Assembly (NCBI GenBank): GCA_004431415.1
Contig: QPMI01000508.1
Coordinates: forward strand, 109,429-173,428
DNA length: 64,000 bases
Source: Cyanophora paradoxa CCMP329
Lineage: Eukaryota > Plantae > Glaucophyta
Direction: 5' to 3'
The notes under the pieces are model-generated. The model had not been told where the DNA came from. It made no database searches and saw nothing but the letters and a program-made list of their open reading frames with translations. The stretch's first letter is position 1, and each line of letters opens with the position of its first letter. Positions 42,678 through 64,000 of this stretch are shown here, one piece after another. A program made the translations under genes and the position numbers.

Positions 42678-42878
42678 TATCGAATGCTCAGTCTCTCTGA
42701 GATCTATGCTATCCTTGAAAGGAAATCCGCTGAATATGCAACAGAAGCCGCAATAAAAAAGCGTAGACAGGAACTGGTCTCGATCTGCAAAAAATGACAA
42801 GGGATTTAAGGGTAAGGTGTGTTTGATTGGTGAACCCGGACAAATTATTTTCTCGTCCCAATATAAGGAACATATCAA

Positions 42879-43106: not shown

Positions 43107-43299
43107 ACCGCCCCAAAGTCCCAGATATCCGCTGAATCCTTTTTGTTACCATGATCAATCGACTTTTCGATGGATCATTACCATATATCGAGCGCCAATC
43201 GGAAAACCCAAAGGTATTTAAAGGTTAGCCGCCAAAAAATGACAAGCGACCGGAGAAATTAATTTCTCCATTAAGTATAAGAAGCCCCCGATTTTCGAA

Positions 43300-45663
43300 A
43301 TGAACGCTGCCGCCAAGAAATCCCTGAAACGCCTTGTTGATTGGCTTCGTGAAGACGATGTCCTGTCTGAGAATCTCGTAATTCCTGTTGATCCTGATAC
43401 CAAAAGACCGCTTTTCGCTCATAAAGACGGATCCTGGACTTGGGATAAATTCGATGAAGCCCTGAAATCCGGTAAATATACTGCTTGGGGCATTCTTGCT
43501 CGTAATATCATGGTTATTGACTTCGACCAAGAGGAGGATTTCGCCAAATTCGAGGAGCAATTCCCTGATGATTTCGGTGGTGTTAATCCACTTGCTAAAA
43601 CCAAAAAAGGATATCATGCTTATTTCGCTCGACCTGCTGAATTCGACACCATTAAGATCTGGGATAAAGCAGGTGCATTCAAAGGAAACCCCAAGATCGA
43701 CTGCAAAACGATTGCATCCACTGGGACTGCTGGGGTAATTAATGTTTGTCCAAGTCCCAACAAAACATGGATCAGAGAGCCATGGGCATCTGAGTGTGAG
43801 TTAAATGAACCTACTGCTGAGTTGCAAAAGTGGATTGTTGACAACTACGAATTCCCCAAAGGTGCACATTCTTATTTTGAGAGGTGCGCTGAGGAGAATT
43901 TGCAGAAACATATTCTTTCTAAACTGGAAGAATTCGGTTTCATCTTGCCCACAATCATCAATGAGACCAAGATGGGATACAATTTCACTGCTGAGAACAA
44001 AGGTCTGATCTGTCCCTGCTGCAAGGGAAGCCATGACTCGAACAATTGGTATATTGTTCAAGGGAAGGAGAAGGACAAATATATTGTTTCGAGTTACAGT
44101 GCAAACTGCAAAAAGCGAAGCATCACAGTTCGTGTGAAGGAAGAGACAGATGTGAAGATCGAAAATCTGATTGATCGGTCTGCTGGATCTGATGGTGCCC
44201 ATTATGATGTTGCACAGGTTGCCTATCTTGTTCTGCAAGACAAATACAAGTATTCCAACAAGACCTGGTTCAAGTTCAATGATGTATGTGGGATTTGGGA
44301 GATGGATGAAACTGGGAAGCGAATCTTTCTCTGTTTGAGCTGCAAGGTCTGTCCAGTTTATCTTCAACGTTCTGTTCAACTCGCACAGAGAGCACTTCGT
44401 GATGAAGAGAACCGCAATTCCTTGGAGGAAAGGTCAAAGATTCTGCTGGGAATTGCTAAGAGCCTCAAACAGACTACATACAGAACTGCACTTATGTCTG
44501 ATCTTTCAGTTCTGTTCAGTGACAAGACCTTTTTCGAGAGACTTGATACTGTTCCCAACATCATTGGATTTACAAATGGTGTGTTTGACCTGAACTCCAT
44601 GACTTTTCGACAGGGACTCCCAGATGATATGGTGAGTAAGACTGTTGGCTACGATTACACCACAGAAATTGACCAAGAGAAAGTTGCGAAGATTAAATCC
44701 ATCTATGCAGATATTATCGAATCTGATGAAAACCGCGAATTTATGATGGGATTAATTGCCTATGCCCTGAGTGGTTTGACAGAAAATCAGAGATACACTT
44801 GCTGGACTGGAATTGGAGCAAATGGGAAATCACTGCTCCAAGAGTTGGTGAAAGACACATTTGGTGAGTATTATGGGTCACTGGACATGACATATTGGAC
44901 TAAACCCAAGAAGAGTTCGTCAGAGGCTTCCCCAGAACTCGCTTGCATTCTTGGTAAACGAATTGTTTTCAGTAATGAAGCAGAAGATGGTGATATGCTT
45001 CAACTGAACAAAATCAAACAGGTTACTGGTGGGAATGAGATGAAGGTTCGAGCTCTTTTCAAAGATCTTGTTACATTCATTCCCATGTTCCAGTTGTTCT
45101 TGTCCACAAATGACAACTTGGGAATCAGTAAACCAGATGCAGCAATTCAAAGGCGAATTATCTACTACCGATTCGAAAATGTCTTCAAGGTCGATCCTCA
45201 GCCTGGTGAGAAGAAAGCAGACACCACTCTCATGCGCCTAATGAAGAATGATGACGATTATAAAATGGCGCATATGTCCATTCTCCTGGAAATGTGGAGA
45301 ACCCATTCTCTCAATGAATTCGTCACCAAACCACCCCAGTCCATTGTTGATCAAGGTGTTGAATATTTCAATGAGAATGACAAGATTGGAGAATGGATTC
45401 GTGAGAGTTATGAACTCACCAAGAGTCAAGGGGATTTCGCCACAAGTGAGTCCATTATCAGTCACTTTAAGATGGATCACATGGGCAAATCTGATGAGAA
45501 AATCACAGAATGCACTATCTTGAAGAGACTTCGCGAAGTCTTTAATGTGAAGGCTGAGAGAAAGCGAGTCAATGGTGTTCTTGCTCGTGGCTACTTTGGG
45601 ATCAAAAAGAAGCATAGTCGCAAGTTGGTGGATGACAGTGATGTTGAAGGTGGGGATGAGTAA
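43300..45663 (+). CDS. Primase (Prim-Pol-like) fused to a D5-like SF3 helicase
   Basis: N-terminal VIDFD and T..GYHAYF primase motifs; CPCC...H Zn finger; IGFTNGVFDL (D5_N); Walker A GIGANGKS, Walker B FSNE, motif C LSTN. Confidence 0.9.
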   Translation: MNAAAKKSLKRLVDWLREDDVLSENLVIPVDPDTKRPLFAHKDGSWTWDKFDEALKSGKYTAWGILARNIMVIDFDQEEDFAKFEEQFPDDFGGVNPLAKTKKGYHAYFARPAEFDTIKIWDKAGAFKGNPKIDCKTIASTGTAGVINVCPSPNKTWIREPWASECELNEPTAELQKWIVDNYEFPKGAHSYFERCAEENLQKHILSKLEEFGFILPTIINETKMGYNFTAENKGLICPCCKGSHDSNNWYIVQGKEKDKYIVSSYSANCKKRSITVRVKEETDVKIENLIDRSAGSDGAHYDVAQVAYLVLQDKYKYSNKTWFKFNDVCGIWEMDETGKRIFLCLSCKVCPVYLQRSVQLAQRALRDEENRNSLEERSKILLGIAKSLKQTTYRTALMSDLSVLFSDKTFFERLDTVPNIIGFTNGVFDLNSMTFRQGLPDDMVSKTVGYDYTTEIDQEKVAKIKSIYADIIESDENREFMMGLIAYALSGLTENQRYTCWTGIGANGKSLLQELVKDTFGEYYGSLDMTYWTKPKKSSSEASPELACILGKRIVFSNEAEDGDMLQLNKIKQVTGGNEMKVRALFKDLVTFIPMFQLFLSTNDNLGISKPDAAIQRRIIYYRFENVFKVDPQPGEKKADTTLMRLMKNDDDYKMAHMSILLEMWRTHSLNEFVTKPPQSIVDQGVEYFNENDKIGEWIRESYELTKSQGDFATSESIISHFKMDHMGKSDEKITECTILKRLREVFNVKAERKRVNGVLARGYFGIKKKHSRKLVDDSDVEGGDE

Positions 45664-45731
45664 ACAAAACAGAATCGATTCTAATACTGATTGAATTTCT
45701 TATTTTTTAAAAACCTTACTGTAAATGGTTT

Positions 45732-45866
45732 GTGTGACAGCTGTGACACCTTTTTAATTGAGTGTGACGCCTGTGACGCCTGTGACGCCTATTTTCAAAC
45801 TTTTTAAAATTTCAAAAATCTACAAACCTCTGAAAACAGGTGTCACAGGCGTCACAGGCGTCACAC
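45732..45866. promoter_or_regulatory. Internal iteron/AT-core cassette (putative replication origin) just downstream of the primase-helicase
   Basis: (tgtgacgcc)3, tattttcaaactttttaaaatttcaaaaa..., (ggygtcaca)3; same design as the TIR cassettes. Confidence 0.6.
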
Positions 45867-46017
45867 CCAATTAACCACAGACTCCCCCCTGTGGGTCGAT
45901 GACTGTTTCGATTCTTAATCGGACAATATAAAAACGTATCGAAAATCGTTGTGTTGTGACAAAAATTGACTGGCGATTTAAGGGATCGTTGCGTATTTCA
46001 CTTGACTAAGACAGAAA

Positions 46018-46209
46018 ATGGATTATTTTGATGAAATTCGGCAGCAGCTTGTCGAAAAGAATGATATTGCAGAGGTGGCGGATTATATTGCAAAGATCAG
46101 AGCAGGTTATGGTAGAACCTATCAAAAGAAGCGTGTTTATGCAAGCAGACTCGACACAGTGAATGTATATGTCCCCAAAGGCACGAATGTGCGAATTATC
46201 AGAACCTGA
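46018..46209 (+). CDS. Small hypothetical viral protein
   Basis: 63-aa ATG ORF filling the gap before polB. Confidence 0.45.
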   Translation: MDYFDEIRQQLVEKNDIAEVADYIAKIRAGYGRTYQKKRVYASRLDTVNVYVPKGTNVRIIRT

Positions 46210-46265
46210 AAAATGCGAAATGCGTTTAAAACGCCCAAAAATAATATGTTCCCTTAAAGTAAAAG

Positions 46266-49200
46266 ATGCCCCGCCAATCAAATAGAATCATCAAAGAAAA
46301 GAAAAACGAAATACTCGGTCTTTTAGGAACCCTTTTAGTTACTGGTGATATTACAGAATTCGAATATGATCGCCAGGCAGCAATCCTGGATAGGAGACCA
46401 AGATTATCTCAACTCACAGAAATTACTAATCGCCTCTATGATCGTTTTGAGAAGATGGAGGAATTCAGGGATGAAGGTTTAAGGTTGGGAACAATTGAAC
46501 CCGAGATTGAAGATGGGGAAGCAATGAACAAAGCATACTCTTGGTTAACCTATCGAGCAAGAGGGAGGTTATCCAAGATGGGATTGAATTCTTGGAGAGA
46601 ATTGCACCCACTCTACCTCAGAGACTCAGACAGAAACTCCAAGACCTGAGAGCAATTAAGACTCGGTTGACCTTCATTTGTAAGTTCACCAAAGTGAGTG
46701 ATCCAAGGGTGTGGATCACCAAGTTCATTTATAGTGATTACTTTGTCATCACAAGATCTCGAAATATTGATGTTGAACTGCGAAATGCACTTCAAGCAAT
46801 GCAGGAACAGATGATGCAGGTGGACAGTTACAGACTGGATCGCATCGAGATGCTGAGAGTGGTTATAATGTCTTATGCTCCTGTGGGTGGTTGCTTCTTC
46901 TCAACACCTGAGTGGATTGGATTAAAGAGAGCAACTGTGAATGTCAAGAATATTGATGGTCAAGACTGCTTCAAGTATGCAATCTTGGCTTACCTGCACC
47001 GAAAGGACATCAATAAACACAAGAGCAATGAACCCAGCCAGTATAGAAGATGGTTAAACGAACTCAATTTCGAAGGCATCCAGTTTCCAGTTGCCTGTGA
47101 TGCAGAAATCATTGATCGATTTGAGGAGCAGAACCCTGAACTGAGTATCAACATTTATGGTGCAGATAATCAAGCACAGTGTTTCTATCCTCTCCATCAA
47201 TCCTGCAACCCGAGGAGAAAGACCAAGATTAACCTTTTATTAATCGAAAACGAAGAGGATGATAGAGGACATTATATCACCATTATGTCTCTGAGTCGAC
47301 TCCTGAAAACCACCTTTGATAAAGCCCATGATGGTCGCATTTATTATTGTGAGACCTGCCTGTCTCGTTTCAGAACTCAGGAGAAGCTGGACATTCACTT
47401 AGAAGCCAATCGCTGCATTGATTGGAGGAGAGCAAAGGTAAATGCCCGAAATCTGGAAGTCACATTGCATTTGGGCTTCAACACCTTCGCAAAACTGTGT
47501 GGCTTCCCACTATCTGCTATGTAAAAATGGATAGTCACTCGGTTCCAATTGATGAGAACCGCAGTAAAAGAGCGGTCAAATCGGTTTCTTTAACAGTTGT
47601 GATGGGGATGAGGTGATCTCTCATTATTTCGAGGATCAGATCCACTTGGTGCTCTGTTTACCACTCTCACAGAGATCAGACCCCAAGTAATCCGCACTCT
47701 ATTCACCAATATTCCAATGCACCCACTCACAGAAGAGCAGAAAGCACAATACAAGATCACTAAACACTGTTATATCTGTGCTGAACGATTTACCCATGAG
47801 AATTTCCCAGTAAGAGACCATTGTCATCAATCAGGAGCTTTTATTGGAAAAGCATGCCGAAACTGCAACCTCCACAGGAGAATCTCAAAGCAAACGAAAG
47901 TAGCAATTGTGGTGGATCACATGGATGAATGTGGACACGAAATATTCCGCAAAATTGCACAGCAAGATGATAAACTTCGTGTTGAGATTCTGAGCAAGAA
48001 TTTCGATCAATACCTCTCTCTGCAATGGGGCATGTGGAAATTCATAGATGCTTCGCACTTCATGGACTTCCAGGCAGTGGATTCTGGTGATCTTATGAGT
48101 AAATTCCAGACTTTCCGAGAATTGGCGTTTTCCCAATATGGATTGGATCCTGCCCACTATGTTTCGGCTCCTGGATTATCCTGGGATGCAATGCTCATTT
48201 ATACCAGAGCAAAGATCGAGCAGATCAGTGATGTAGGGCAATACGAATTCATTGAGAGAGCAATTCGAGGTGGGTTTGCTACAATGCCTACTCGATATGC
48301 AAAGGTGGAAAACCCAGATGACCATATAGTTCTCTTGGATGCAAATAATCTGTATGGTTTTGCTCTCAGTCAAGAACTGCCCATTGGAGATTTTCGATGG
48401 GAAGATGTCTCAGAGGCACTTAAAGAGACCCAAGGACGAAGTGCCTTTATTGAAGTTGACCTGGAATACCCACAAACTCTCACAGATCATTACGATTTTC
48501 CACTTGTAGTTAATAAAGAACATGTCACCACCGAAATGCTGGGTGGGTATCAAAGAAAGTTACTGGATATCACAGGTGAGAAGATAAGCAAAGACCCCAA
48601 ACTCACTGCAACATTCTCACCAAAAATAACTATGTGATTTCCCAACCTCTCTTGATCTATCTTGTGAGCAAAGGTATTATAATCACGAAGGTTCACAGGG
48701 TTCTCTCATTTGCAACCTCTGCATTCATGAAGAGTTATATTGATCTAAATACGAAACTGAGGCGCCAATCTATGTCCAGATTCGAGAGTGACTTCTTTAA
48801 ATTAATGAACAATGCAATCTATGGTAAATGCCTCGAATCATGCAGGGGTCGCTCTGTGGTAAAGATTGCAAACAGTGAGAAACTTTGCAAGAAATATGCT
48901 GCAAGTCCACTCATCAAGGCAACCAATGTATTAAACGAAAATGCTGTTGCCTTTGAGATGTATTCCAAGCATGTTCACTTAGATAAACCTGTTGCAATTG
49001 GTGCTTTTGTGCTGGATTTCGCGAAACTCCACAATAGCAGGTTCTTTTATGATGTGGTGAGGAGAACTTGGGAAACAGCAGAGCTACTATTCCATGATAC
49101 AGATTCTTTCTGTCTCCTGCTGCATACCAATGATCTAAATAATGAGATGAAGCGAATTGCTGGACACCTGGATTGCAGTAATTATGATCCCACCCACCCT

Positions 49201-49542
49201 CTCTTTGATAGGAGCAATCGTTTGATTCCAGGTAAATATAAAAACGAGTTTCCAAATGCAAAGATTGTGGAGTATGTAGGTCTGAGATCGAAACTCTATG
49301 CTTTCAGAACTGAGACCTTTGATAAAATAAAGATGTCTGGGACTTCCTCCAAAGAGGTTCACTTTGATGATTTCAAGAGATGCCTGTTTGAAGGCATCAC
49401 CAAAACAGTAGCAGTAGTAAACAAGCGAAGGCAAGACCACAACCTATATGATTTGGAGAGCAGAAGGGTGGCTCTAAACCAACTCGATAGCAAAAGGAAG
49501 ATATTAGACGATGGAATTCACAGCATTCCATTTGGGCTCTAA
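46266..49542 (+). CDS. polB: Protein-primed-type family B DNA polymerase (Maverick/adintovirus-like), split by five single-base frameshifts, exonuclease motifs degenerate
   Basis: CFKYAIL, FEEQNPELSINIY, RDHCHQSG...ACRNCNL, YGLDPAHYVSAPGLSWDAML, IRGG, motif A DANNLYG, motif B KLMNNAIYGK, motif C DTDS, GLRSKLY. Confidence 0.88.
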
Positions 49543-49707
49543 TCTACTTCATCAATCTTTCTTTTTCTTTGGTTTCGCTCTCCAAGAAGTAATAAACCGC
49601 GAATTAAATGCAGCAGCCATATACATCTTAATCCTGGATCATTGGGCTCAATTGCAAAGTAGTTTGGAATTGTGTTCTCCTTCCACACAGACTCTTGCAT
49701 TTATTAT

Positions 49708-51126
49708 ATGAGAGATAAGGTAAAGATGCCTTCTACACAAATAGGATTGAGACAACCACCCAGAATTGTAAGAAAAGAGGCAATTGAAGATCGAGGGAAT
49801 ATCCTGCCCATCACAGTTCCAGTGGAGGAGAAGAGCAGTCGAATATTGAAAAGATCAGAGATGGTCAAGCAATTAATCCCAGAGACCCTCCCAGCTGAGA
49901 CAGCACCAAAAGAGTCGAAGATTGCTAAGAAGTTCTATGATCCCAGGACAGGCTACAAGGGATTTACTGCAATGAGACAGGAACTACCAGAGGAGAACTA
50001 CAAGAAGATGAGAGAGTGGTATGATAAGCAGGAGGTCGTCCAGATTAATGCACCCACCCTATCTCGAAAGAGAGATCCCATGATTCCAATAAGGCAACCC
50101 CTTGATACCTATGTGATTGATCTGCTCTTCTTTCCTGCATACAAAAAGCAGAATGATGGTTATGATACATTTATGAGTGCAATGGAGTCAACCCTGAGAA
50201 CAGGGTTCATAATTCCAATGAGAGACAAGAGTGCTCTTACTACACTTGCAGCATTCAAGCAACTTGAACAGAGAGTCCCCAGACCAATTGTTCGCATTCA
50301 GAGTGACAGTGGAAGCGAATTTACCAATGTGTTGTTCACAGATTATTTGGGAACAAAATTCATTGAGCATCAACTAAGTGATGTTGCAGATCACAGAACC
50401 CAAGGTCGAATTGAAGCCTTTAACAGACAGATCAAGAGATTGATCACAAACTACTGCATTGCAAATAATACTGCACGATTTTTTGATGTGTTGGGTGATA
50501 TTGAGTATAATTATAATAATACCATTCACTCTGCAACCAAGAGAAAACCAGCAGAGACCACAGAAGCCCACTACAAAGAGATTGTGAATATGGAGGATCA
50601 GAGATTCAAGAAATCGATTGAGTATCTTGATGCCCTGAAACCTGGAATGTTTGTGAGAGTGAAAGTTGAAAAGAATCCATTTGCAAAGCAAGGGGTTAAT
50701 TGGTCTCGAATTGTTTATAGTGTGGAGGGCAGAGAGGGCTTCAAGTTCAGAATCAGAAGTCCCAGTGGTGAGATAGTTGATGGTAGATTCGCTTTTCATG
50801 AACTGCTGCCCATTAAAGGTGTTGAGTATCATGAAACTCCCACAGTGGATGCTCTTGAACAGGCAAAGGAGGAAGCCAGGGTTGATTCAGCAATCAGAAA
50901 GGAGGGCATAGAAAAAGCAAGTGAAATACCAAAAGAACCCCTCACAGAAGCAAGAGCACAAAAGAAGGGTAGAGTAGAGAAAGAATTAAAGAAGTTGACC
51001 ATAGCAGGAACCCAGAAATTATCAGAAGTCAACAGTCAGAGGTGGTATAATGACTTTTCAACCACCAAAGAAACATATACTGCACCCCAAACTCGATTCA
51101 ATCTACGAAGAGGGCAGAGGAAATAG
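49708..51126 (+). CDS. Retroviral-like (rve) DDE integrase of Polinton type
   Basis: VIDLL (D), IQSDSGSEF (D), GRIEAFNRQIK (E), YNNTIHSAT...P, SH3-like G..VRV...NWS; no chromodomain seen. Confidence 0.92.
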   Translation: MRDKVKMPSTQIGLRQPPRIVRKEAIEDRGNILPITVPVEEKSSRILKRSEMVKQLIPETLPAETAPKESKIAKKFYDPRTGYKGFTAMRQELPEENYKKMREWYDKQEVVQINAPTLSRKRDPMIPIRQPLDTYVIDLLFFPAYKKQNDGYDTFMSAMESTLRTGFIIPMRDKSALTTLAAFKQLEQRVPRPIVRIQSDSGSEFTNVLFTDYLGTKFIEHQLSDVADHRTQGRIEAFNRQIKRLITNYCIANNTARFFDVLGDIEYNYNNTIHSATKRKPAETTEAHYKEIVNMEDQRFKKSIEYLDALKPGMFVRVKVEKNPFAKQGVNWSRIVYSVEGREGFKFRIRSPSGEIVDGRFAFHELLPIKGVEYHETPTVDALEQAKEEARVDSAIRKEGIEKASEIPKEPLTEARAQKKGRVEKELKKLTIAGTQKLSEVNSQRWYNDFSTTKETYTAPQTRFNLRRGQRK

Positions 51127-51127
51127 A

Positions 51128-51370
51128 TTAACAACGCTTTCGGAATCTCTTAGACCTCTGGCGAATTTTCCTCATTTGTCTATCTTTTTCAATAATTTCC
51201 AAGAAGAAAGTTTCAAGGTTTGAGACCAGTTGGTAATTATAAACAAAGAACAGTCTCACATGCTCTGGCTGTGACATGAAGAAATTGTAATAGAAAGCAG
51301 TCTTGAAATCATGGATCCAGTCTGACTGGGCAGCATGGATGATAGCAGGGTCTTGGTAGATGGGATCCAT
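51128..51370 (-). CDS. Small hypothetical viral protein with a basic C-terminus
   Basis: 80 aa from ATG 51370, convergent with the integrase. Confidence 0.5.
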   Translation of the reverse strand: MDPIYQDPAIIHAAQSDWIHDFKTAFYYNFFMSQPEHVRLFFVYNYQLVSNLETFFLEIIEKDRQMRKIRQRSKRFRKRC

Positions 51371-51530
51371 AGCAGAAGTTGGGAGAATCCAGAAACTCCT
51401 TGTCAATTTTTTATTTTGTAAGTGCCCGATCACGACGAATCCTGATTGGCGCTATCGTGGCGATTCCGAATCTGTTTTCAGATTTAAAAACGGAGCACCT
51501 GGTAATAAAATACATATGTATGACCGATAT

Positions 51531-51663
51531 TGAAGTTTCGGTGAAGTTTCGGTGAAGTTTCGGTGAAGTTTCGGTGAAGTTTCGGTGAAGTTTCGGAAAA
51601 GTTTCGGTGAAGTTTCGGTGAAGTTTCGGTGAAGTTTCGGTGGAGTTTCGGTGAAGTTTCGGT
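51531..51663 (+). repeat. 12 x 11-bp tandem repeat (TGAAGTTTCGG)
   Basis: Read directly; two variant units. Confidence 0.95.
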
Positions 51664-51689
51664 CAATCGGATAATTCTATGAATCGCAA

Positions 51690-51941
51690 AATGGTTGCGC
51701 GTCATCGCAACCATCATCGCAACCATGGTTGCATCATCGCAACCATCATCGCAACCATGGTTGCATCATCGCAACCAGGTTGCGCAACCACTCAATGGGA
51801 AAAACATTGGTTGCGCAACCACTCAATCGGAAAAAAATTGGTTGCGCAACCTGGTTGCGCAACCAGCGCAACCATGGTTGCATCATGGTTGCATCATATC
51901 GCAACCATGGTTGCATCATCGCAACCAGGTTGCGCAACCAT
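51690..51941. repeat. Array of palindromic GCAACC/GGTTGC modules
   Basis: Repeated gcaaccatggttgc and ggttgcgcaacc palindromes. Confidence 0.9.
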
Positions 51942-52391
51942 TATGACGTCATGACATCACTTGTTTCATCATATATATATATACCATACATTTCGTGTGA
52001 CACTGAGCCCCCCGAGTTGGCGACCGACCAATCCGCGATTTTGTGGTCAAAATGTATATATGCGCATATATACTTGACGGTTCGCGTTACTACTGTCGGC
52101 ATCGCCTAACGTTCCCACTGTGGGGCTGTCGGCATCTTCAAACGCTTGTATCTCACCACCAGATCATCAGATCGCGACCGTCGACATAGCGCTGGAAAGC
52201 GCTTAAAAAGACCTACACGATGGTGTAGGTATCAAGTATATATACGTATATATTTCATACATATATTTCGAAAAAACGATTTATCGGCTACTTTCTAATG
52301 TAAGGAACATACAGTAAAATAATGCAAAATACAGTAGCTACTGTAAAAAAAGCCATAATCTGGTGCACCATACATCAGAAGTCCTGATGTA

Positions 52392-53932
52392 TCATACACT
52401 TCGAATAAATGCACCTGTGACATCCACTCTCATAGTTGGGGTGTTGATGTATACAAGTGGATAAATTCGAATATACCTTGTCCTCAGAGGGTAGCCAATA
52501 TAGAAAACGTCTCTAATAGAGGTGGGATACCCAGAACTGTATGAGACATCACCACTGTTGTGGGCATTATTAATAGTTTCACACATAAACACTCTGTTGA
52601 CACCTTCATACTTGATAAATGACCAGGAAACACCATCTTGTGATGTTGCAACATTGAAGGTCTTAATAAAAGCGTTTGTTACACCAGAACCATATGCAAT
52701 TATAGATGCAACCTCAAATATGTATGGGAAGGTTACTTGGAGATACTCAGTGGGAACACTCCATATCCCATCAGGAGCAGATGCATTTGCTTCCCAACCT
52801 GTCAAGGAAGGTCTTGCTTTAAATGCCTCCCTTCCAATTTTTGATGATGAAGCAGTGAATGCACCATCTGATAGAAGATACCAGTTAGCATCAATGGGAG
52901 GTATGTTATTCAGAGTGGATGATATATAGAACCTTGCAGGGTTCTTGATTTCGTAATTTGCAACCAGTAAATCACAGAGTCTATCAATCATCACAGTGTT
53001 TGCTGCTATATATATTTCGGTTGCATCTATCATATCTGGTATTTTAGAGGTATCATCCAAAGAGTTTACTATGGTCTTTGGAAGTGGAACAGAGAGTCTA
53101 TAATATCTTGCATATCCTTGATCATCATTGTATGGGAGAAACTCTTGCATCTTTTCCAGAGCAGACAGTTCACTTGCAGCCATCAACATATTGATTAATG
53201 GACTTCCAGAGGTCGAAGCAATCCAAGAGAGGATGCCCCAGCTGTTCACATCTTCATAAGAGTAACCCACATTTGGAGCATCTGTTTCATTGACTTCACC
53301 ACAGGATATACTTATCACTATAATATCATCATCATCATCATAGATCTTCTTAGCATGACTGTAACCACAGACACTGGGATTGTTGTTACCTGAGATTGCA
53401 CCATCAATTAGAGACATCCCATCATAGTTCACAGGTGAGAAATATGTTGGAGCAGCAGAGGTGGATCTTGCAGCAATCTTGCTGGGGATGGATTTGTAGG
53501 AGTTATCATTGGTGATAAAAATGGGCTTCATACTCACAGTGTCAAAACTTGTGATCACTACATCTTTGAGAGAGTCTTGAATGAGAGACTCACCAGTAAC
53601 AGTGAGAATGGCTGTCTCCAATGGGGTCACATCATACTTGGTGTTGAAAAGTGCATTATCAATAATATTTCTGGGATTTGCAAAGATTAAGGGGAGTTGA
53701 TTGAGATAAGTGGAATGCAAATCGGTTGCAGTAAGTTTAGGTTCGTTTGGAAATTCGGGATTTTTCACATTGAGACCAATCGCAATTATCCCACCAGTGG
53801 ATGTTCCACTCACCAGATCAACAAGGTCAATTACTCTTTTTCCTGTTCGAGTTTCGATTTCTTTTAACAATCTCGTAATAATTATACCACGAGCTCCCCA
53901 CCTGATAATGAGAGAATTACACGAAGGGGCAT
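52392..53932 (-). CDS. Patatin-like phospholipase fused to a C-terminal F5/8 type C (discoidin) domain; one-base frameshift near the 5' end
   Basis: Restoring one G at about 53897 gives MPLRVILSLSGGGARG; GTSTG nucleophile; SAAPTYF; IDGA; discoidin FTASS...EYLQVTF...SQDGVSW...RTRYIRIYP...MRVDVTG. Confidence 0.88.
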
Positions 53933-53981
53933 CTTTACTTAACTCAAATTTAATAAATCTCTATAAGTAGAGTAAACAGGG

Positions 53982-56900
53982 ATGAGTTTCAATTACCCAG
54001 CAAACCTTCAAACCATTCCCTCATCAGGAAGAGGGAAGGCAGATAACAAACATGTGAATTTCGATAACTTGACAGCCAGAGGGTCAATCTCAATTGATCA
54101 CAGTGCAGATGAACCCTCAAAGACTCACCCAAGAGAGCATGCACTTTCAATAAACGAAATGGATCCCGAAAAGGAGGATGTGAGTGTTGCTTTCAGCATG
54201 GGGAATGTGAAATCGAATCAAGTAGCCCAGATTAAAGCAACCAGGAGCAGACCAAGAAAACTGAAAACCAGTGGAACCCATCCAGATATTCCAACTCGAT
54301 TCGATAGTGGTAGGTTAATATTCAATGTTCAAAATGAGAAGGGTGGGCATCAGAGTGGTTTGAGAATCTATAATGAAGGATCAAATGCAATTGCACAAAT
54401 TCCCGAAATATTACAGATAGCCCCCCATGGAGAAACCAACAAAATCGAGTTCACTAACAATGTTTATCCACGAGATATTGTGGCGAATTCGGCTTCTAAT
54501 GCGCAATTCGGTTTCCAACTACCAAGTGATACAGCAAAGAATAAGGCGTCTATCACTGTCAACAGTAGCCCCACTCAACCAGTAACAGTTCATTTACACC
54601 CAGACCTTGTCGAAATGGATAGGCACCTTTTACCTTTGGTGACAAACACCAAAGATCTTGGTATTAGAACCAGACAATGGCGAAATATCCATGGAAGCAA
54701 TGTCTATGCAAATGGAGAGAAACTTGTAAGTGAGAAGACCATAAGAGAGATCTTTGAGTATTATGGACCTGTCCCAGTTCCCTTCCCACTACCATGGGAT
54801 CCACCAGATTTAACACCCAAAAAGCAACCAGGAAGAGAATACACAGCAGATGAGACAGTTCCTTTTGGGCAACACATTGTTAGTTGGGAGCAAGTTCGCA
54901 ATAAACCTATAATTGAACCCAGAAAGCAAATTGATGAGCAATATTTACCTCCTGAAATTGATATTTTGGAGCTTGACGAATACCAATTCGTTCCAGATGA
55001 GGAGGAATACCTACCTGATGGTTTCGACCCACAAGAGTATGAATATGATCAATATGATCCCAATGAGGAAGAGTATTTACCAGATGGTTTAGATCCACAA
55101 GAGTATGAATATGAGCAGAATTATGAACCCCATGAGGAATATTTAGCAGATGGTCATGATCCACCAGCTGTTGACTATGAGCAACCTTATGAACCCCATG
55201 AAGAATTATTACCAGATGGATTTCGACCTGAGATTTGGGAATTCTTCCCAGATTGGGAGCAGATCAACAACAAACCAGCCAGATTTCCACCAGAGGATCA
55301 CAACCATGACTGGGATGAGATCTTAGGCAAACCTCAAAAGTATCCACCAGAGGATCACAGGCATGATTGGGGTGATCTGGATGGGATACCAGATAAGTTT
55401 GCAGCAAGCAACCATGAACACACCTGGGATGAGATCAATGACCAACCAGAATTCGCAAAAGTAGAGCCTCTTGCTACTCTGGGAGTTTCTCTTTACCAGA
55501 CTTGCAATGTCCCTGAAAGGATCTTTTTGAATCACCACTATGTTCATGTGGAAGGGACACTTGCAAATTCAGCTATGATAGGACCATTGCATATTAGAAC
55601 ATTACCAGGCTCTTATAATCCACCACCAGAACCAGGAGCAACCATACCAAATATCTTTGTGTCAAGCTACATGGAGGTTGACATACCCACAGATACTTTT
55701 AGAGTTCCAACAGACCCAGCAACCTACCAAAATTACAATGCAGCTATACAGGTTCATGTTGCAGATGTGAGCAGTCTGGATGGATCAAGACCAATGATAG
55801 TTTTCAGTCGAGATAAATACTCCTATATTCCCATAGTGGGAACTGCAAATGATAACTATGGGAGGGCAGAGCTTGCATGGATCAAAACAGATTATGGTGG
55901 GGTTCTCGAAGCCAATCAAAGAATGGCTGCAAAAAACATTCACAACGAAAATATATCGAGAGTGGTAACAGAAGATTATTTAGAAGATCAAGGATATATT
56001 GACGAAGGAGAACTAACGAATATTCTTTCTTTATTCGTGATTAAAAATGATACAAACCTTACAGTCACAAGTAACATTTACACCAGTAACATTTCAGCAA
56101 GTAACATTTGGACAAGTAACCTATGGGCAAGTAACCTATGGGCAGATGATATTTACACAAGTAATCTTACAGTGTATCGAAATATAACAATTGGAACACA
56201 AAATACTATACAAATACTTTATAGACCTTACTATGCTGTTACTACTGTCATTGATCCAGCCCCAATTATTCCAAATTGTATATTTGCATGGAAAGCATCA
56301 GGTCAACATGGTCAGTTGATATATTATCAAGGTCAGATATATAACAGAGTTACTACACAGATACCATATCTAACAAATTATTCGAATTGGGAAACTGTTT
56401 ATTATTATTTGAATGCAACCCTAAACAATCAAATTTCGATTGGGAAAGAATTAAACATGGCTTATAGGAATAGTGTTTCAATAGATTGGTCATTAGGTCT
56501 TACATTATTCTTTATAGGTAGGATCAATACTACAAATCCTTCTTATATGTTGAGTATAAGGGATAGTTCTTATCAAAATTGGATTGGATATGGTTGTAAA
56601 AATCAAAAGTTTGGTGTTTCACTACAAATTCAAAATGATATAGAAAATGCAACTCCTCCATTATTCGATGCATCATATATTTATAATTCGTGGAATTATT
56701 GGGATTTCACTGTTTCCTCAGAGCAAATTGTCGTAGGAATGGGTGGTATTGATATTGGAACATCATCGGGTGATTTTCTTCCACCTTCTAATTTTGCATC
56801 ATTTGGTTCTTCTGTTGCTAATGGAGATCTTGCCGAAATTATCGTTTTCAATCGTGCGTTATCTATTGAAGAAAAGAACGCGGTTAGATATTATATACAA

Positions 56901-59771
56901 TTATTGTATGGATTTCCAAATACGCAGCCCATATTGAATAATGAAGATCTTAAAATTAATTCGAGCAATATATTTATTGAAAATCTCACAGTTACCAAAA
57001 ATGCAACTCTACCACATCATCCCACTTCGAATGTTGTTTTAGATTGGTTAGCAAAACAAACACACACAAAAGCAGATATTACAGATTTCGCCCACACTCA
57101 CACAAATGATCAAATAACAGATTTCGCCCATACTCACACAAAATCGCAAATCACAGATTTCGCCCATACTCATTTATGGGAGCATATCACAAATCCTCCG
57201 TTAACCTTCCCACCTGATTCACACACTCATGATTATTCAGAGATTACAAATAGCAACCACAGGCACCCATGGAGCGAAATAGACGAACAGCCAGTTTTTG
57301 CCCAATTGAATGCAATCGGAAACGTTTTTAATGGAGTCACACTTTACCAATCGAGTAATACACCTGAAAGGCTATTTTTGAATGATCATTATGTTAGTCT
57401 CAATGGTTCATTTACAGGTCAAGACGGCACACCGATGGTGGGAACTCTTGCAGTAAGATTACCCAGGGATCCAATCGTAAATGGAGTGTATAGTGGCGAT
57501 TTTAATGTAGGAATTAATGATACTTTCCCCAGTATCTATGTCACGAATTATCACCCGGGTGAAACAGGACAAGTAGCGGATTTTTCAGCAGCGATACAAG
57601 TAAATGTAACAGATCAAAGCGCATATGATGGAGCAAGACCTAAAATAGTTTTCACAAGGGAGAAAGTTGTAAACTACCTTCCTGTTGCGGGACAACCCAC
57701 AGATGATCACGGTAAATGTGAGATTGCATGGATAAAAACGACATCAGGTGGCGCCTTAGAAGTCAATCAGAGAATGGCGGCGAAAAACTTACACAATACC
57801 ACCCTTTCCGGTGTTGTTACAGATGATTACCTTACCAATAAAGGGTATCTTACCTCAGCCGATTTAAGTAGTTACACAACAGATGCAGAATTAACGGCGG
57901 CACTTGCTAATTATCTACCTCTAACAGGTGGAACTATTACAGGAACTGTGAATGCTACCACTCTACAAATTGGTGAAACCACAATACCAAAAGGTTACGA
58001 TTTCGACCAATTAGATGTGGTTTCGACAGACAGGAGCGCAAATAATTGGAACTTAGGATGGACACCAAGAACCGGACAAACAGGATGTTATACAACACCA
58101 CAAAATGATGAAGATTGTAGCGCTTGTTTTATGCGTTGGACAGTTCCAGAAGGTATGAAATCGTTTTACATCCAGCACATGCCGTGGTATAATTGTAGAT
58201 ACTTTGATATTTACGGGCAAACTGTGAATGGATATCAACATTTCTTAAAACGAGTTAATGATTAAGGAATCCAATCAGTTAATAATGATGGAACCAATAA
58301 TACTATTTTGTTCACTTCTATCAATTGCGAATTCTACAAATATATTTATGTCCAAGGTCGAAAAGGTCGCATTCATCTCACAGGTGTTTTTGGGTGGAGC
58401 AGACAGAGAGCAACAGATAATGAATTGGGCATGATCTCTTGGGATAATGTATATAGCAAACCATCATTTTACTCAGCCGCAGACCTCCCAGGAACAGCAA
58501 CATGGCCAACAAATACATGGTTAAAATCAGTAGATGCAGTCGAGCGAATTTGGTTTGGTAATGGCGATTGCACATATATACGAGGGAGACCGAATGGTGA
58601 AGGTGTGTCAATTGAATTTAGAGACTCAGCAGATGGAGCAATTTTAAAGTCTTATAACAATGGTAACTTTTGGGTGAAAAACACTATTACAGCACCCACT
58701 ATTAATGCTACTACCAAACTCCAAATAAACGGTAATGATGTCCCAAAGTTTCACACAGCAGATAAAACAGTAGGAGGTATTGCATTTAATAGATGTTCTG
58801 AGGGTTGGACATGGGCATGGAGTTCAGCATGGGATCCATATTATAATTATGGTTCATATGTCTATAATAATCAAACGGATGATCAAACATCTACCGCTTG
58901 GATTGACTTCGATATACCCGATGGATACCACACAGGAACAGCATTTTTAACCTATTTACCTTGGACTAACTCACGAATTTTTGAAATTTGGGGAGTGAAT
59001 CGACAAGGGAATGAAGTTTTTATTACATCAGTAAATAGTTATCAACCATACAGCACATCTCCTGATGGTAACCACAGTGGTATAAATAATGTTCCAATAC
59101 ATCTTGGTAATCGATTCCTCACAATTCGGATTAGACCAAAGATTGGAAGAGTTCATATTATGGGTATTAGTTACATGAAAATTTGGGTTGGAAATAGTTA
59201 TGGCGGTCACACCGGCTATATTCATTGGAATAACGTTTATAGCAAACCCAATATCTTAACAGGAGCATTGGATCTTTGGTTTAACTCTAATGATGGATAT
59301 AATCGTATCTATTTTACGAATAATAGCACCACGTATTTTAAAGGAAGAGGAACTTATCCAATAAGATTTCGAAATGAATTAGATTCTGATATTTGTTATA
59401 TCGATCATGACGGGCGCTTGTGGATTAACAATTATCTTTATCAAGGAAGTGACATAAGATACAAAACAGATATTAAAAAGATAACCGGCGCTCTTTCAGC
59501 AATTGAGAAATTAGAAGGAGTGAGTTATAAACGAATTGGAAATGAAAAACACGGAACAAAATTAGGTTTAATTGCGCAAGATGTAGAAAAGATAATACCA
59601 GAGGTTATTAACGTGAAACAAGATGATGGCTATTTAGGTATCGAATACACGGGTTTAATTCCAGTTCTCATAGAAGCCGTTAAAGAATTATCCCAGAAAT
59701 GCAAACATTTAACGCAAACTTGTGAAAATCTCCAAAGTCAAATAGACCAAATTAAAAATGTCACAGTATAA
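53982..59771 (+). CDS. Giant fibre/receptor-binding protein with C-terminal peptidase S74 intramolecular chaperone; one in-frame TAA at 58263-58265
   Basis: Acidic repeats, H-x-H repeats, a duplicated internal domain and a LamG-like block; ORF 58308 is in frame with ORF 53982; ends SDIRYKTDI...GLIAQDVE.IIPEV...IEY..LIPVLIEAVKEL. Confidence 0.8.
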
Positions 59772-59774
59772 TAA

Positions 59775-60083
59775 ATGGCGACCTATCCACTTGGTGGATC
59801 TCCTTCTATTACTTCTGAGCCTGTCGCTCTTGCATTCGATACTATCAAACTTGTAGCCGCACTACAAACTGTCGAAAAAACGATACAGCAAACCAACAAA
59901 CTGTCACCGGTTGTTCATGAATATAAAAACCTTTTGGTTAATGTCCTTGCGCAATCGGCTTATGGTGACCCAGTAACAAAATATGGTGAATGTGATTCTA
60001 ACCTCAAAGCGATGACATCCAACATCCAATGTCTAACAACCGCTTACCAATCTCTTGGATCCAATCTAATTGCTTTGGCTTGA
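59775..60083 (+). CDS. Hypothetical viral protein
   Basis: 102-aa ATG ORF starting 3 bp after the fibre gene. Confidence 0.6.
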   Translation: MATYPLGGSPSITSEPVALAFDTIKLVAALQTVEKTIQQTNKLSPVVHEYKNLLVNVLAQSAYGDPVTKYGECDSNLKAMTSNIQCLTTAYQSLGSNLIALA

Positions 60084-60122
60084 ATGGTGTTTATTTTTCT
60101 TTCCTTCTTAGTAAAAGAAGCA

Positions 60123-60908
60123 ATGGGTGAATATAATCGAGTTCAACTTCCAATATATTCCCTTGGATCCCCTGCTATGCACTTTCGCCAGCATGAAGTT
60201 AATGATGAGGTTCGTGGTTTAGAATCAACAGAGAGACCCAATTCCAATGGTAACTCCTTTGATAAGAATTCGATTATTCGAGTTAAAGAACTGAGAGCAG
60301 ACAAGAATTCTGGTGTGGTTAAAACAACTCGACTCCTTGTCTCAAATGCGAATTTCTTCCAACCTACTAATGGAGGTCCTGATGCTTACAGTGTTGATCT
60401 GAAAGCCCTTGATTTCGATAAGAATTCTGCTGCTGTTACTGTGAGATCAGGAGGAGCATTTATTGGGGGTGGCTGTCGAATTTCAGGTCAACTTTCATCC
60501 TCAATTTCGTATAATGATGTCCCAGATACTCTTGAACAAAATGCTGAGAACCCACAACGAATTCGTTTCTACACACCTGTTGCACAGCAACCTTTTCTTC
60601 ACTTCTATGTTACTTCCTCTGTGACTCTTGAAAACTCGGAATTGGTCTCCATTACAGGAACTGATCGAGTAAGAAGAAATATTCCTCTTCCCACAGCAAT
60701 GCTTTCGATGTGTAGAGCAAACAACAATCAAACAGGTCATAATTACCTATTCTTTGTTCAAGCATCAAATCATTTCGGTCGAGGATATTGTGTATATAAC
60801 AATTTGACATTTACCTATGATCTGTTTGTCACTGAGGTAGGAGTTTATAATACTATGATAATTGGACTGAGAACAGATATAGCAGCTGTTTCGGCACTTC
60901 GAGGGTAA
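60123..60908 (+). CDS. Putative virion fibre-like protein, paralog A
   Basis: Shares its N-terminal domain with ORF 61000 (V.GL.STE...EL..DKN.G.VKTT.LLV.NANF...GGA.IG.G.RI.G); alternative ATG at 60084. Confidence 0.6.
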   Translation: MGEYNRVQLPIYSLGSPAMHFRQHEVNDEVRGLESTERPNSNGNSFDKNSIIRVKELRADKNSGVVKTTRLLVSNANFFQPTNGGPDAYSVDLKALDFDKNSAAVTVRSGGAFIGGGCRISGQLSSSISYNDVPDTLEQNAENPQRIRFYTPVAQQPFLHFYVTSSVTLENSELVSITGTDRVRRNIPLPTAMLSMCRANNNQTGHNYLFFVQASNHFGRGYCVYNNLTFTYDLFVTEVGVYNTMIIGLRTDIAAVSALRG

Positions 60909-60999
60909 ACGTTGCAGATATCTTCACAACAGGGTTTTACCAGGAACCAGATGTGATTGATGACCCAACCCCATAAATTATATATCACTTTAATGTAAA

Positions 61000-61848
61000 A
61001 TGGCTGCCCCAATACCAGAACGAATTATTACACCCCAACTATCATTAGCAGCACCTGCGAATCACGTTTTGCAGCATGCTACCTTTGATGATGTAGAAGG
61101 TCTCCAATCCACAGAAGTGCAACCTACCATGAATACATTTGGTTCCACCCACAAACTGAGATTGCAGGAACTCAGGTGTGATAAAAATAATGGTATAGTT
61201 AAGACAACGAAACTCCTTGTCACAAATGCAAACTTTTCTGCCCACTATGGAGACCCAGACAGTTATGGTGATCCTCTTTCTACTTATTCTTTTGAATCTC
61301 GGTCGGGAGCTATTAACTGCAAAACGGGGGGAGCATATATTGGTGATGGTCTTCGGATTGGTGGAGCTGTTGGTGCGCCTCTTTTCGTAAATGATCAACC
61401 CAATCCCATTGATCCCAACACCAGAATTCGCACCTATGTCCCCAGTATGAATGCACCATATATTATCAAGATCTTCCCAATTGTTGTGAATGAGCAGACA
61501 TCAGTAGTTGATTCTCTTGTTGAGATTGGTGACCACTACAAGGTGGTTGTCGATATCCCACCAGATGTTTATGCTGTCTGTCAAGTAGAGGGTGGAACCC
61601 CAAATATTGCAGTTGTGATCACTCCATATGACAATTTCGGAATCGCTTATCATGGTGTGAATTTCGGTCTTGAAGATTACCAGTTCTTGGTGAGAGCCAC
61701 CAGATTTGGTATCTACAAATGCATTCTCTATGCTGAGAGAACCGATGCTATTGCAAAACAGAATACATATGCAGAATATTACGGCACAAATCGCTACTTC
61801 CCCATTTTCGGCAGGATACTGCTCCATAGAAATCTCAGGTATATATAG
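61000..61848 (+). CDS. Putative virion fibre-like protein, paralog B
   Basis: N-terminal domain paralogous to ORF 60123; C-terminal half diverged. Confidence 0.6.
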   Translation: MAAPIPERIITPQLSLAAPANHVLQHATFDDVEGLQSTEVQPTMNTFGSTHKLRLQELRCDKNNGIVKTTKLLVTNANFSAHYGDPDSYGDPLSTYSFESRSGAINCKTGGAYIGDGLRIGGAVGAPLFVNDQPNPIDPNTRIRTYVPSMNAPYIIKIFPIVVNEQTSVVDSLVEIGDHYKVVVDIPPDVYAVCQVEGGTPNIAVVITPYDNFGIAYHGVNFGLEDYQFLVRATRFGIYKCILYAERTDAIAKQNTYAEYYGTNRYFPIFGRILLHRNLRYI

Positions 61849-61856
61849 AGAGAGGG

Positions 61857-62129
61857 ATGGATGATAAAACAAAGAAATTCATAGAGTCTGCAATGATGGT
61901 TCATGGTGATGCTAAATTCGATTACAGTGAGACAGTCTATAAGAAAGCACAAGAGAAGGTCTCTGTTAGATGCCTCAAATGCAACAAGATCCTCCAAACC
62001 TACCCATTTAATCATGTAAGGGGAAGTGGATGCAGAGAGTGCAACAAGAAATCCTCTCATGCTTACAGAAAAAAGACTACATCAGGAATTGTGATAGATG
62101 ATAAACCAGTAGTATTATATTTTGATTAG
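61857..62129 (+). CDS. Stand-alone DUF723-like Zn-binding repeat protein
   Basis: FIE.A..VHG..FDYS.T.Y....KV...C..C....Q.P.NH..G.GC..C. Confidence 0.7.
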   Translation: MDDKTKKFIESAMMVHGDAKFDYSETVYKKAQEKVSVRCLKCNKILQTYPFNHVRGSGCRECNKKSSHAYRKKTTSGIVIDDKPVVLYFD

Positions 62130-62275
62130 ATCTTTGAGAGAGAAATGAGGATCTTTCCCCATTTTCCCTTTGTGATTATGCATGTATCAAAGCAGTTTGG
62201 ACAGGTCTTGTGGTAGTGCAGCAGAATGATATCCACCAACTCATATGGTAGCACTCTTGCTAAGATGGTTCGCAT
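62126..62275 (-). CDS. Tiny ORF with an F-box-like motif and CxxC
   Basis: MRTILARVLPYELVDIILLHYHKTCPNC. Confidence 0.35.
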   Translation of the reverse strand: MRTILARVLPYELVDIILLHYHKTCPNCFDTCIITKGKWGKILISLSKI

Positions 62276-62316
62276 TCTACCAATCGCGTTTTTTAATTTT
62301 TCTAAATTATTCATAA

Positions 62317-62718
62317 ATGAATACTCATCGAGGCTTCCATGTGATGCTGGATTACAAATTCAGAACCCAATTAGCAGTAGGAATGGAGGACTTGGAGACA
62401 ACAACCAGGTGGTTAATGCAGTTCTTGCAAACTATTATTCAAGAGCAAGGTATTCGAGTAGTTCACAAGCATTGCGAGATTTTCGATGGTGGTATTTCTC
62501 CTCCTGGTTTTGCAATGGTTCTTCTGCTGGATGAGAGCCATTGCACTGCTCATTGTTACTCAAATGAAGGTATGTTGGCGATTGATATATTCAGTTGTGG
62601 ATTAGAAGCAGAGAGGAAAACCACGAGAGTATCTCATGAGATAGATGACAGAATAACAGGTGTGTTTTCAGGGTTGGAGAAATCGGAGAAACATAGAGTA
62701 TTGCGATTTCCGAGTTAG
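62317..62718 (+). CDS. speD: S-adenosylmethionine decarboxylase proenzyme (short prokaryotic-type, pyruvoyl-dependent)
   Basis: G.HVMLD, PPGFAMVLLLDESHCTAHCY (E/S autocleavage site), AIDIFSCG. Confidence 0.85.
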   Translation: MNTHRGFHVMLDYKFRTQLAVGMEDLETTTRWLMQFLQTIIQEQGIRVVHKHCEIFDGGISPPGFAMVLLLDESHCTAHCYSNEGMLAIDIFSCGLEAERKTTRVSHEIDDRITGVFSGLEKSEKHRVLRFPS

Positions 62719-64000
62719 TTGACACTGAGAAATTCAGAATTTCAGATGGTCTTACTGAAAATGGTCAGATAATCGGGTGTGACACCTATTTAATTGACTG
62801 TGACGCCTCTTTAATTGACTGTGACGCCTGTGACGCCTGTGACGCCTACTTTCAAACTTTCTAAAATTTTCAAAAATGACAGACTTCTTAAAACAGCCGT
62901 CACAGCCGTCACAGGCGTCACACCCAATTAAAAATGGAATCTATCTCTCTTACTGAGATATTCAAAAATATATTCTTGTCTTACTGAAATCCGTCTTGTG
63001 ACACCTCTGACACCTACAAAACAATATCCATTAATCAACCTTTTTGATAATGCGAAGTTGCCTTACTGGAAATGGTCTGCAATTTCGCTGTGACACCTAA
63101 GTTAATTGAGTGTGACGCCTGTGACGCCTGTGACACCTACTTTCAAACTTTTTAAAATTTTCAAAAATGACAGACTTCTGAAAACAGGCGTCACAGCCGT
63201 CACAGGCGTCACAGACATTCCACCCCTCTTACTGACTTTCTCAAAAACAAAACTATCTCTTACTGAATATCATTTGAATACTACCTGTCACACTTGATCT
63301 CAATTATTCTGTTTTATAGAACATATGCAATTCCATCGATTGTTTAATTGGACATGATGCAACTCTGTGACACTTTTTCGGTGCAAAAATGTAAATCCGC
63401 AATTCCATCGATTGTTTAATTGGACGTGATGCAGTTCCGATATATTCCAATAGAAAATCCCGCAATCTGATCGATTGTTTAATTGGACATAATGCAACTC
63501 TGTGACACTTTTTCGGTGCAAAAATGTAAATCCGCAATTCCATCGATTGTTTAATTGGACAAAATGCAACTCTGTGACAGTTTTTGCGTTTTCCGATACA
63601 AAATGGGCGGTGGTCTACTTCAATACCGATGAGATATATCGAGTTTATGCGAATTTATGCGAATTTATGCGAATTAATCGCGATTATATCGTTCTTTAAG
63701 TAGTTTAATGTTAATCAATCGAAGTTATATATGTAATCGACAAAGAACATAATTTATCGATATAATATCGATTGAATCAATCGTGAATATGCATTAAATT
63801 AAACGCGTTTATCATTTTTAATACGAAGTTTGCATTAATTTATACAAAGTTTGCATAAAAAGTTAAAGAAATTAATCGATAAATATGTATTTTAGTATTA
63901 AATTAACACATATTGAAAAACGAATTTAAATCCAGAGTGAATCGAGATCGCGAAGCGATCGAGATGAACGAGGGATTTAAATTCGTTTTTCAATATGTGT
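62623..64000 (-). repeat. Right terminal inverted repeat (1378 bp)
   Basis: Reverse complement of 35737-37114; overlaps the last 96 nt of speD. Confidence 0.95.
63906..64000 (+). other. Right terminal 95-nt hairpin with a GCGAAGC tip
   Basis: acacatattg...aaatcc pairs with ggattt...caatatgtgt; central gatcgc-gaa-gcgatc. Confidence 0.9.

Follow-up and report, generated by a model that had tools for sequence, protein, structure and literature searches.

Introduction

What use would a small integrating virus of a eukaryote have for a gene that resembles an S-adenosylmethionine (SAM) decarboxylase? The question is raised by a short gene near the right end of a 64,000-nucleotide stretch of the Cyanophora paradoxa CCMP329 genome (contig QPMI01000508.1), the whole of which is referred to here as the window. 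An earlier note, made from the letters of the window alone, had taken the gene for a SAM decarboxylase (AdoMetDC) that would either supply polyamines for packaging or drain SAM to counter methylation silencing by the host, and had added the caution that some homologs decarboxylate arginine or ornithine instead. According to Li et al. (2023, JBC), many lone SpeD homologs do act on arginine (SpeDA) or ornithine (SpeDC) (PMC10407285), and the account of viral polyamine genes in PMC9992855 mentions pyruvoyl arginine decarboxylases among viruses only from phages. The answer matters beyond this locus. When viral genes are labelled 'SAM decarboxylase' automatically, the label can wrongly suggest a role in methylation. 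If the arginine reading developed below is true, viruses of eukaryotes would possess a pyruvoyl arginine decarboxylase, and the smallest of these viruses an enzyme of polyamine synthesis. The protein is short, and an established test in E. coli exists for it.

The host element and its gene map

The gene belongs to an integrated polinton-like virus (PLV) whose left edge, at 35737, is marked by a drop in GC content from 68% to 40%. The features of the element, with strand in brackets where one applies, are as follows.

35737..64000: integrated polinton-like virus, 28,264 bp; 40% GC against 68% GC in the host flank; its right end is the last base of the window
35737..37114: left terminal inverted repeat (TIR), 1,378 bp, matching the right TIR at 100% complementarity; near 37019-37114 (-) it repeats the 3' end of the decarboxylase without a start
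62623..64000: right TIR, 1,378 bp
35737..35831: 95-nt imperfect terminal palindrome, a hairpin-like end (-33.5 kcal/mol, z -10.6); mirror copy at 63906-64000
37412..38344 (-): probable minor capsid protein; no Pfam match, weak match to the minor-capsid-like protein of viral locus L187 (E 0.012)
38373..39383 (+): probable minor capsid-like protein; ESM Atlas top match 0.98 to an unnamed viral cluster, commonest phylum Preplasmiviricota
39438..40808 (+): predicted double jelly-roll major capsid protein (MCP); ESM Atlas 0.98 to clusters in which 12-18% of members carry Capsid_N / Capsid_NCLDV
40871..41653 (+): A32 packaging ATPase; Pfam PF04665, E 2e-10
43300..45663 (+): primase / D5-type helicase; Pfam PF09250, PF08706, PF19263
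46511..49542 (+): region of a protein-primed family B DNA polymerase, broken up over several frames; Pfam PF03175, E 7e-6, on 47717-48637, flanking frames by position and motif
49708..51126 (+): rve-type integrase; Pfam rve E 0.002, below cut-off; PHROG transposase E 2e-11
52392..53960 (-): fusion of a patatin-like lipase with an F5/8 type C domain; Pfam PF01734, E 3.5e-17, and PF00754; in this copy the 5' start is out of frame
53982..59771 (+): a pair of fibre-like proteins, of which the second has an S74 chaperone domain; PHROG tail / tail-fibre matches; Pfam PF13884, E 5e-16
61857..62129 (+): small zinc-finger / endonuclease-associated domain gene directly upstream of the decarboxylase; Pfam DUF4379 below cut-off; PHROG endonuclease E 7e-11
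62317..62718 (+): proenzyme of a pyruvoyl decarboxylase with SpeD fold, 133 aa; predicted to be an arginine decarboxylase (SpeDA) and to be cleaved at E73/S74

The double jelly-roll MCP (assigned in the element from language-model features only) and the A32 ATPase, together with the size, the TIRs, the integrase and the polymerase and primase-helicase, fit a polinton-like virus, and the context of a small integrating eukaryotic virus given in the earlier note is borne out by a 28.3-kb PLV with perfect TIRs and hallmark genes. The lack of an adenain-type maturation protease is a criterion that sets PLVs apart from Mavericks and virophages. No protease family was matched in the 64 of 64 stop-to-stop frames of at least 85 aa that were searched in the element, a screen that a diverged protease could escape. 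Endogenous PLVs of protists, as described by Bellas et al. (2023, PMC10120064), share with the element a size of 15-30 kb, TIRs, a drop in GC, an MCP, pPolB or primase-helicase, and an rve integrase; the main text of that study names no decarboxylase or polyamine gene, whereas the present element has a decarboxylase. Relatives of the MCP of the element were not found in the viral-contig scan.

The same frames (64/64, at least 85 aa) gave 0 matches to a spermidine synthase, in agreement with the earlier note, and none to an agmatinase, an agmatine deiminase, a homospermidine synthase or a methyltransferase; linked genes that use agmatine (speB, speY, aguA/aguB) were likewise not found among them. 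The host flank is GC-rich and carries pieces of eukaryotic genes; LINE-like fragments of an endonuclease and a reverse transcriptase are seen in it at 17946-20932 and 26288-28549.

Several further observations concern the architecture of the element. The 95-nt end of each TIR folds as one long hairpin, resembling an opened hairpin telomere, and such ends are unexpected in an element that has an rve integrase and a polymerase of the protein-primed type. Each TIR contains two copies of a palindromic repeat about 134 nt long (36502-36926, 45741-45874, 62798-63222), and a single internal copy sits between the helicase and polymerase regions; the repeat is a possible protein-binding or origin site. 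Between the integrase and the lipase lies a non-coding block (51500-51940) made up of tandem repeats of 11 nt and of palindromic repeats rich in CG. Frame changes break the polymerase (46511-49542) and the lipase (52392-53960) in this copy and may reflect either sequencing errors or decay. At 60148-60459, contigs of two sequencing runs skip 310 bases within a 274-aa gene, which could represent an element variant or splicing.

An intact and apparently conserved proenzyme

The frame at 62317-62718 (+) runs from ATG to TAG over 133 aa with 0 internal stops, a length within the range of about 120-140 aa of class 1b SpeD-fold pyruvoyl decarboxylases, and its product matches the Pfam family AdoMet_dc at E 6e-11 with 43 bits, above the cut-off of 25. 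A gapless alignment over residues 60-98 sets S74, H79 and C94 of the viral protein opposite S63, H68 and C83 of T. maritima SpeD, which are described as required in processing and catalysis (PMC10407285). The AlphaFold model (pLDDT 90.5) has the T. maritima and Aquifex proenzymes as its top Foldseek matches (E 2.5e-7). With the uninterrupted frame, the AdoMet_dc match, the S/H/C residues and the fold model in agreement, the intact short SpeD-type proenzyme of the earlier note stands: the gene, situated at the right end of a PLV, encodes an intact pyruvoyl proenzyme of the class 1b SpeD fold. Autocleavage at E73/S74 into the pyruvoyl enzyme is predicted from the conserved residues.

Fold, size and processing residues are shared with the class 1b AdoMetDCs treated in PMC9992855 (T. 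maritima SpeD, phage S-PM2, Algavirales HaV01, YSLPV2), but the viral protein is about 17-20% identical to the T. maritima and Aquifex enzymes in structural comparison, falls in a separate clade and scores below the cut-off of TIGR03330. The TIR boundary crosses the gene (62623-62718 / 37019-37114); codons 103-133, the last 31, lie inside the right TIR and are therefore duplicated, start-less, at the left end of the element. These 31 codons are a genuine part of the gene, since the C-terminal Arg-Phe is invariant in a 20-row alignment.

The stretch is present, with at least half of its words, in 14 sequencing runs, all of one coded organism and none recorded as RNA. In run X1, 62500-62595 is covered by at least four distinct contigs, ranging from near-identical to about 83% alike, so several diverged lineages of the element carry the gene. 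Thirty of the 40 listed differences in the diverged copies are synonymous, against 21% expected, with 0 stops; this count (40 of 44 differences) is indicative, because each change was taken alone and only stretches at least 80% alike were used. The codons of S74, H75, H79, Y81 and S82 show silent changes only, and the decarboxylase appears conserved among the diverged host copies. Contigs that span the gene in two further runs (X15 record 9, X16 record 12) were not counted as expression, their RNA nature being a guess and a silent control stretch being absent.

Arginine rather than SAM as the probable substrate

A single proline is described as conserved in bona fide AdoMetDCs and not conserved in SpeDA (PMC10407285), and is taken here, from that description, to be T. 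maritima P71. This site is S82 in the viral protein, which reads H-C-Y-S-N where T. maritima SpeD reads H-T-W-P-E; the marker proline is missing, and the upstream proline matching that of T. maritima F-x-P-x-G is kept. No proline stands at the P71-equivalent site in any of 363 motif-bearing relatives (0/363; 363 of 372 parsed). The marker has an exception in phiYS40, a tested AdoMetDC with Ile at this site, S-PM2 having Pro, and SpeDA is reported to be little diverged overall from AdoMetDC (PMC10407285). The AdoMetDC equivalog model TIGR03330 gives the viral protein 42 bits, below its cut-off of 75.65, a threshold that separates poorly because P0018, a relative from the same clade, barely exceeds it at 75.8 bits. 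The diagnostic Gln, Thr, Phe and Tyr of SpeDC are all replaced in the viral protein (0/4; L69, E73, C80 and A88, by our own mapping onto the alignment text of Fig. S5).

For the predicted substrate, clade and gene neighbourhood weigh more than the marker proline. A phylogeny had been proposed as a check in the earlier note. In a 62-row tree (rows L104 and L121 being N-terminal fragments only), the query falls in a 57-row group split with support 100/99 from two phage AdoMetDCs that have been tested (S-PM2, phiYS40), the only such references in a tree that leaves out HaV01, YSLPV2 and HTVC201P, and it lies inside a 48-row group with marine group II archaeal proteins (96/88). Clade membership was judged through Poseidoniales proxies with about 38-61% best-segment identity, and not through the assayed DAC51064, AIF02979, XP_005856029 and KAG5182568. 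By title, the best 80 GTDB loci belong to MAGs of Poseidoniales or of related marine Euryarchaeota (marine group II-type), and speB-like and speY-like genes, their families confirmed on examples, both lie within 1.5 kb of the SpeD gene in 77 of these 80. The tested Poseidoniales and MG-II enzymes are reported to come from speB-speDA-speY clusters, the homologs of Poseidoniales, MG-II, Nannochloropsis and Tribonema to accept arginine but neither ornithine nor lysine, and two archaeal SpeDA enzymes to have failed to complement the loss of speD (PMC10407285); SpeY uses agmatine (PMC13625781). A spermidine synthase gave no match in four of five marine group II-type archaeal genomes and a marginal partial match in the fifth.

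From these lines of evidence, the viral enzyme is probably an arginine decarboxylase (SpeDA), predicted to convert L-arginine into agmatine and not to act on SAM. The name S-adenosylmethionine decarboxylase is not confirmed as a statement of substrate, with residues, clade and neighbourhood favouring arginine, and the caution about homologs with other substrates likely holds the answer here.

Set beside the SpeDA clade of Poseidoniales, MG-II, Gimesia, Solirubrobacter, Nannochloropsis and Tribonema (PMC10407285), the viral protein has the same fold and S/H/C set and likewise no proline at the P71 site and no spermidine synthase partner, and it groups with the Poseidoniales members. It differs in that the prokaryotic genes adjoin speB and speY, whereas the viral gene has neither and its activity is predicted only. 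The pelagiphage HTVC201P offers a further likeness, where a SpeD homolog encoded by itself in a virus has taken arginine as its substrate, with a proposed reliance on host enzymes downstream (PMC9992855), but its enzyme is that of a bacteriophage and is placed with the ornithine-type clade (PMC10407285). Among eukaryotic viruses, the chlorovirus PBCV-1 also makes agmatine from arginine, but by a PLP-dependent, ODC-derived enzyme and with a whole downstream route, where the element has one pyruvoyl enzyme only; the route of chloroviruses is given as arginine to agmatine to putrescine to homospermidine (PMC9992855, PMC7019647). The class 1b enzymes of the eukaryotic viruses HaV01 and YSLPV2 were tested as true AdoMetDCs (PMC9992855).

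A separate observation on the archaeal relatives is that at three loci (L011:9941-11233, L170, L171) a marine group II SpeDA-type domain and a speY-like protein are fused into a single frame about 430-450 aa long.

Other viral carriers and probable gene exchange

The closest protein to the query (P0001, 53%) comes without gene context, and the nearest relatives with context are three giant-virus contigs (L004-L006) that encode a capsid near PBCV-1 Vp54 (637 bits), Erv1, RNase III, D5 and a GH46 chitosanase. At 57-62% GC and with the SpeDA-type gene beside Erv1, these contigs appear to come from chlorovirus-like viruses, for which a pyruvoyl arginine decarboxylase is predicted. A BFVD search gave no close or named relative. 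A first, alignment-based scan of viral sequences gave three loci; a looser motif scan of IMG/VR gave 16, those three included, of which six are PLV-like, six giant-virus-like (three labelled GVMAG, three judged from gene content) and four phage-like. Because the looser motif raised the number from three to 16, the counts are minimum values, from which no frequency among PLVs follows. None of the 16 has the marker proline. In a giant-virus MAG (L177:922-1305), an ATG8-like protein lies beside the SpeDA-type gene.

In five of the PLV-like loci (L174, L175, L182, L179, L187) an A32 ATPase adjoins capsid-sized and minor-capsid-like genes. The capsid candidate of L182 has a poor model (pLDDT 36), whose top Foldseek matches, PBCV-1 capsids at E 1e-5 and TM 0.23, lend it weak support. 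The sixth (L176, identical to L003) has an integrase, a D5 helicase and fibres, and no capsid in the 14.6 of its 16.4 kb that were covered; a search with the L003 protein gave no match besides itself. Spermidine synthase was not found in 49 of 49 called ORFs of the five PLV-like loci or in 12 of 14 of L003, four of the six loci being partial. As to the refuting condition of the earlier note, that the gene be common in described PLVs together with a spermidine synthase, the six PLV-like loci, partial ones included, have the gene, and the synthase was not found among the ORFs covered.

Monophyly of the seven PLV copies was rejected on a quick tree (p-AU 5e-5), and each PLV group adjoins giant-virus-like copies, the query itself being sister to a giant-virus clade with moderate support (95/79 in the 62-row tree, 89 in a later tree). 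PLVs appear, from these trees, to have gained the SpeDA-type gene several times, and the simplest reading is probably a repeated exchange between PLVs and giant viruses, whichever its direction. That genomes of 16-28 kb, with little room to spare, gained it independently suggests that a supply of agmatine or polyamines is truly selected for. As a type, such an enzyme is already known; its setting in PLVs and giant viruses was not found in the literature searched, where the PLV main texts consulted gave no report of a SpeD-type decarboxylase in PLVs or giant viruses and supplementary tables may list the gene.

CpG depletion and the competing explanations

The CpG avoidance seen in the earlier note is confirmed. 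The element core has a CpG observed/expected ratio (o/e) of 0.58 against 1.14 in the host flank, and 444 CG against 671 +/- 14 in 500 codon shuffles; TpG/CpA is in excess (3266 against 2868 expected). Loss of CpG with gain of TpG is the footprint of past methylation and no proof of a working defence, and the TpG/CpA excess suggests that the lineage of the element was methylated in the past. The depletion is absent in the 51500-51940 block and in the outer TIR.

Such a signature invites the idea that a true AdoMetDC drains SAM, makes dcSAM and blunts cytosine methylation of the provirus by the host. The family match is indeed to AdoMet_dc, phiYS40 shows that an AdoMetDC may be without the marker proline, and there is a precedent in kind in the geminivirus BSCTV, whose C2 protein stabilises host SAMDC1 and lowers methylation, with SAM and dcSAM unmeasured there (PMC7248346). 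The idea is nevertheless not supported, because it needs SAM as the substrate while sequence, clade and neighbourhood point to arginine. Moreover, CpG o/e is 0.76-1.06 in the six other PLV-like carriers and 1.34-1.42 in the closest giant-virus carriers; L003 carries a DNA methyltransferase directly after the decarboxylase gene and L179 a SAM-dependent methyltransferase, both of which a SAM drain would starve; and the TpG/CpA excess suggests a lineage that was methylated. The SAM drain is hence highly improbable. With equally little probability, a true AdoMetDC could hand dcSAM to a spermidine synthase of the host, so that more spermidine would be available to translation or packaging. In phages no polyamine gene is commoner than a lone AdoMetDC, and Algavirales carry a functional class 1b AdoMetDC (PMC9992855), but the same clade, neighbourhood and residues point to arginine, and polyamines neutralise only about 0.2% of the virion phosphate of PBCV-1 (PMC7019647), an analogy that weakens the packaging role proposed in the earlier note.

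A renewed shift of the viral lineage, whether toward a different amino acid or toward activity on both arginine and ornithine, is improbable. At least four substrate shifts are recorded in the SpeD fold and some phage enzymes use arginine and ornithine (PMC9992855, PMC10407285), the viral branches are long, and the viral protein has N83 where 293 of 363 relatives have Asp or Glu; yet none of the four ornithine-type residues is present by our mapping, and all tested members of the nearest clade are arginine-specific (PMC10407285). That the gene is an inactive passenger from a giant virus would agree with the broken polymerase and lipase frames of this copy and with its place at a variable genome end, but the decarboxylase frame and its catalytic residues are intact, 30 of 40 differences between copies are synonymous, and the gene recurs in unrelated PLV-like contigs, which makes a passenger extremely improbable. 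Under the preferred reading as an arginine decarboxylase, the gene likely feeds polyamine production and does not block host DNA methylation.

A proposed route and a possible giant-virus partner

In the proposed mechanism, the gene would have been acquired by exchange with a giant virus in a shared host cell. The predicted self-cleavage would yield an enzyme that turns arginine into agmatine, which enzymes of the host or of a co-infecting giant virus could convert into putrescine and then spermidine or homospermidine, and the polyamines so derived may support viral replication. In a bolder form of this mechanism, the PLV would compete for arginine with the giant virus.

A partner of this kind is hinted at by site avoidance together with gene sharing. 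The genes of the element avoid several restriction-type sites (observed against expected: GTAC 1/48, CTAG 0/32, GGCC 2/19, TGCCA/TGGCA 0/34, GGNCC 4/19, AGCT 23/67), far more so than CpG, and each of these counts lies below all 500 codon shuffles. The host flank shows no avoidance of the four palindromes, and six PLV-like contigs each avoid their own, different sets of 4-base palindromes. Giant viruses, chloroviruses among them, package restriction enzymes (PMC7019647), and methylases of PLVs have been read as protection from the restriction enzymes of giant viruses (PMC12220804); for Acanthamoeba mimiviruses, Jeudy et al. describe restriction as an anti-virophage tool as unsupported (PMC7253447). 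The avoided sites may record restriction enzymes of a co-infecting giant virus, and the PLV would then replicate alongside a restriction-armed giant virus, which, if true, would also offer a route for the exchange of genes.

A bolder proposal, which we hold to be unlikely, is that PLVs repeatedly captured the pyruvoyl arginine decarboxylase from co-infecting giant viruses and with it tap or starve the arginine-agmatine-polyamine flux of the factory. If true, polyamine supply would be a contested resource in the conflict between virophage and giant virus, and the avoided GTAC, CTAG, GGCC, GGNCC and TGCCA would spell the restriction enzymes of the helper virus.

A general avoidance of RGCY (CviJI-type) was ruled out as a description of the pattern, AGCC/GGCT occurring 79 times against 81 expected. 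Across 37115-62622, CTGCAG is avoided as well, and AGCT partly so.
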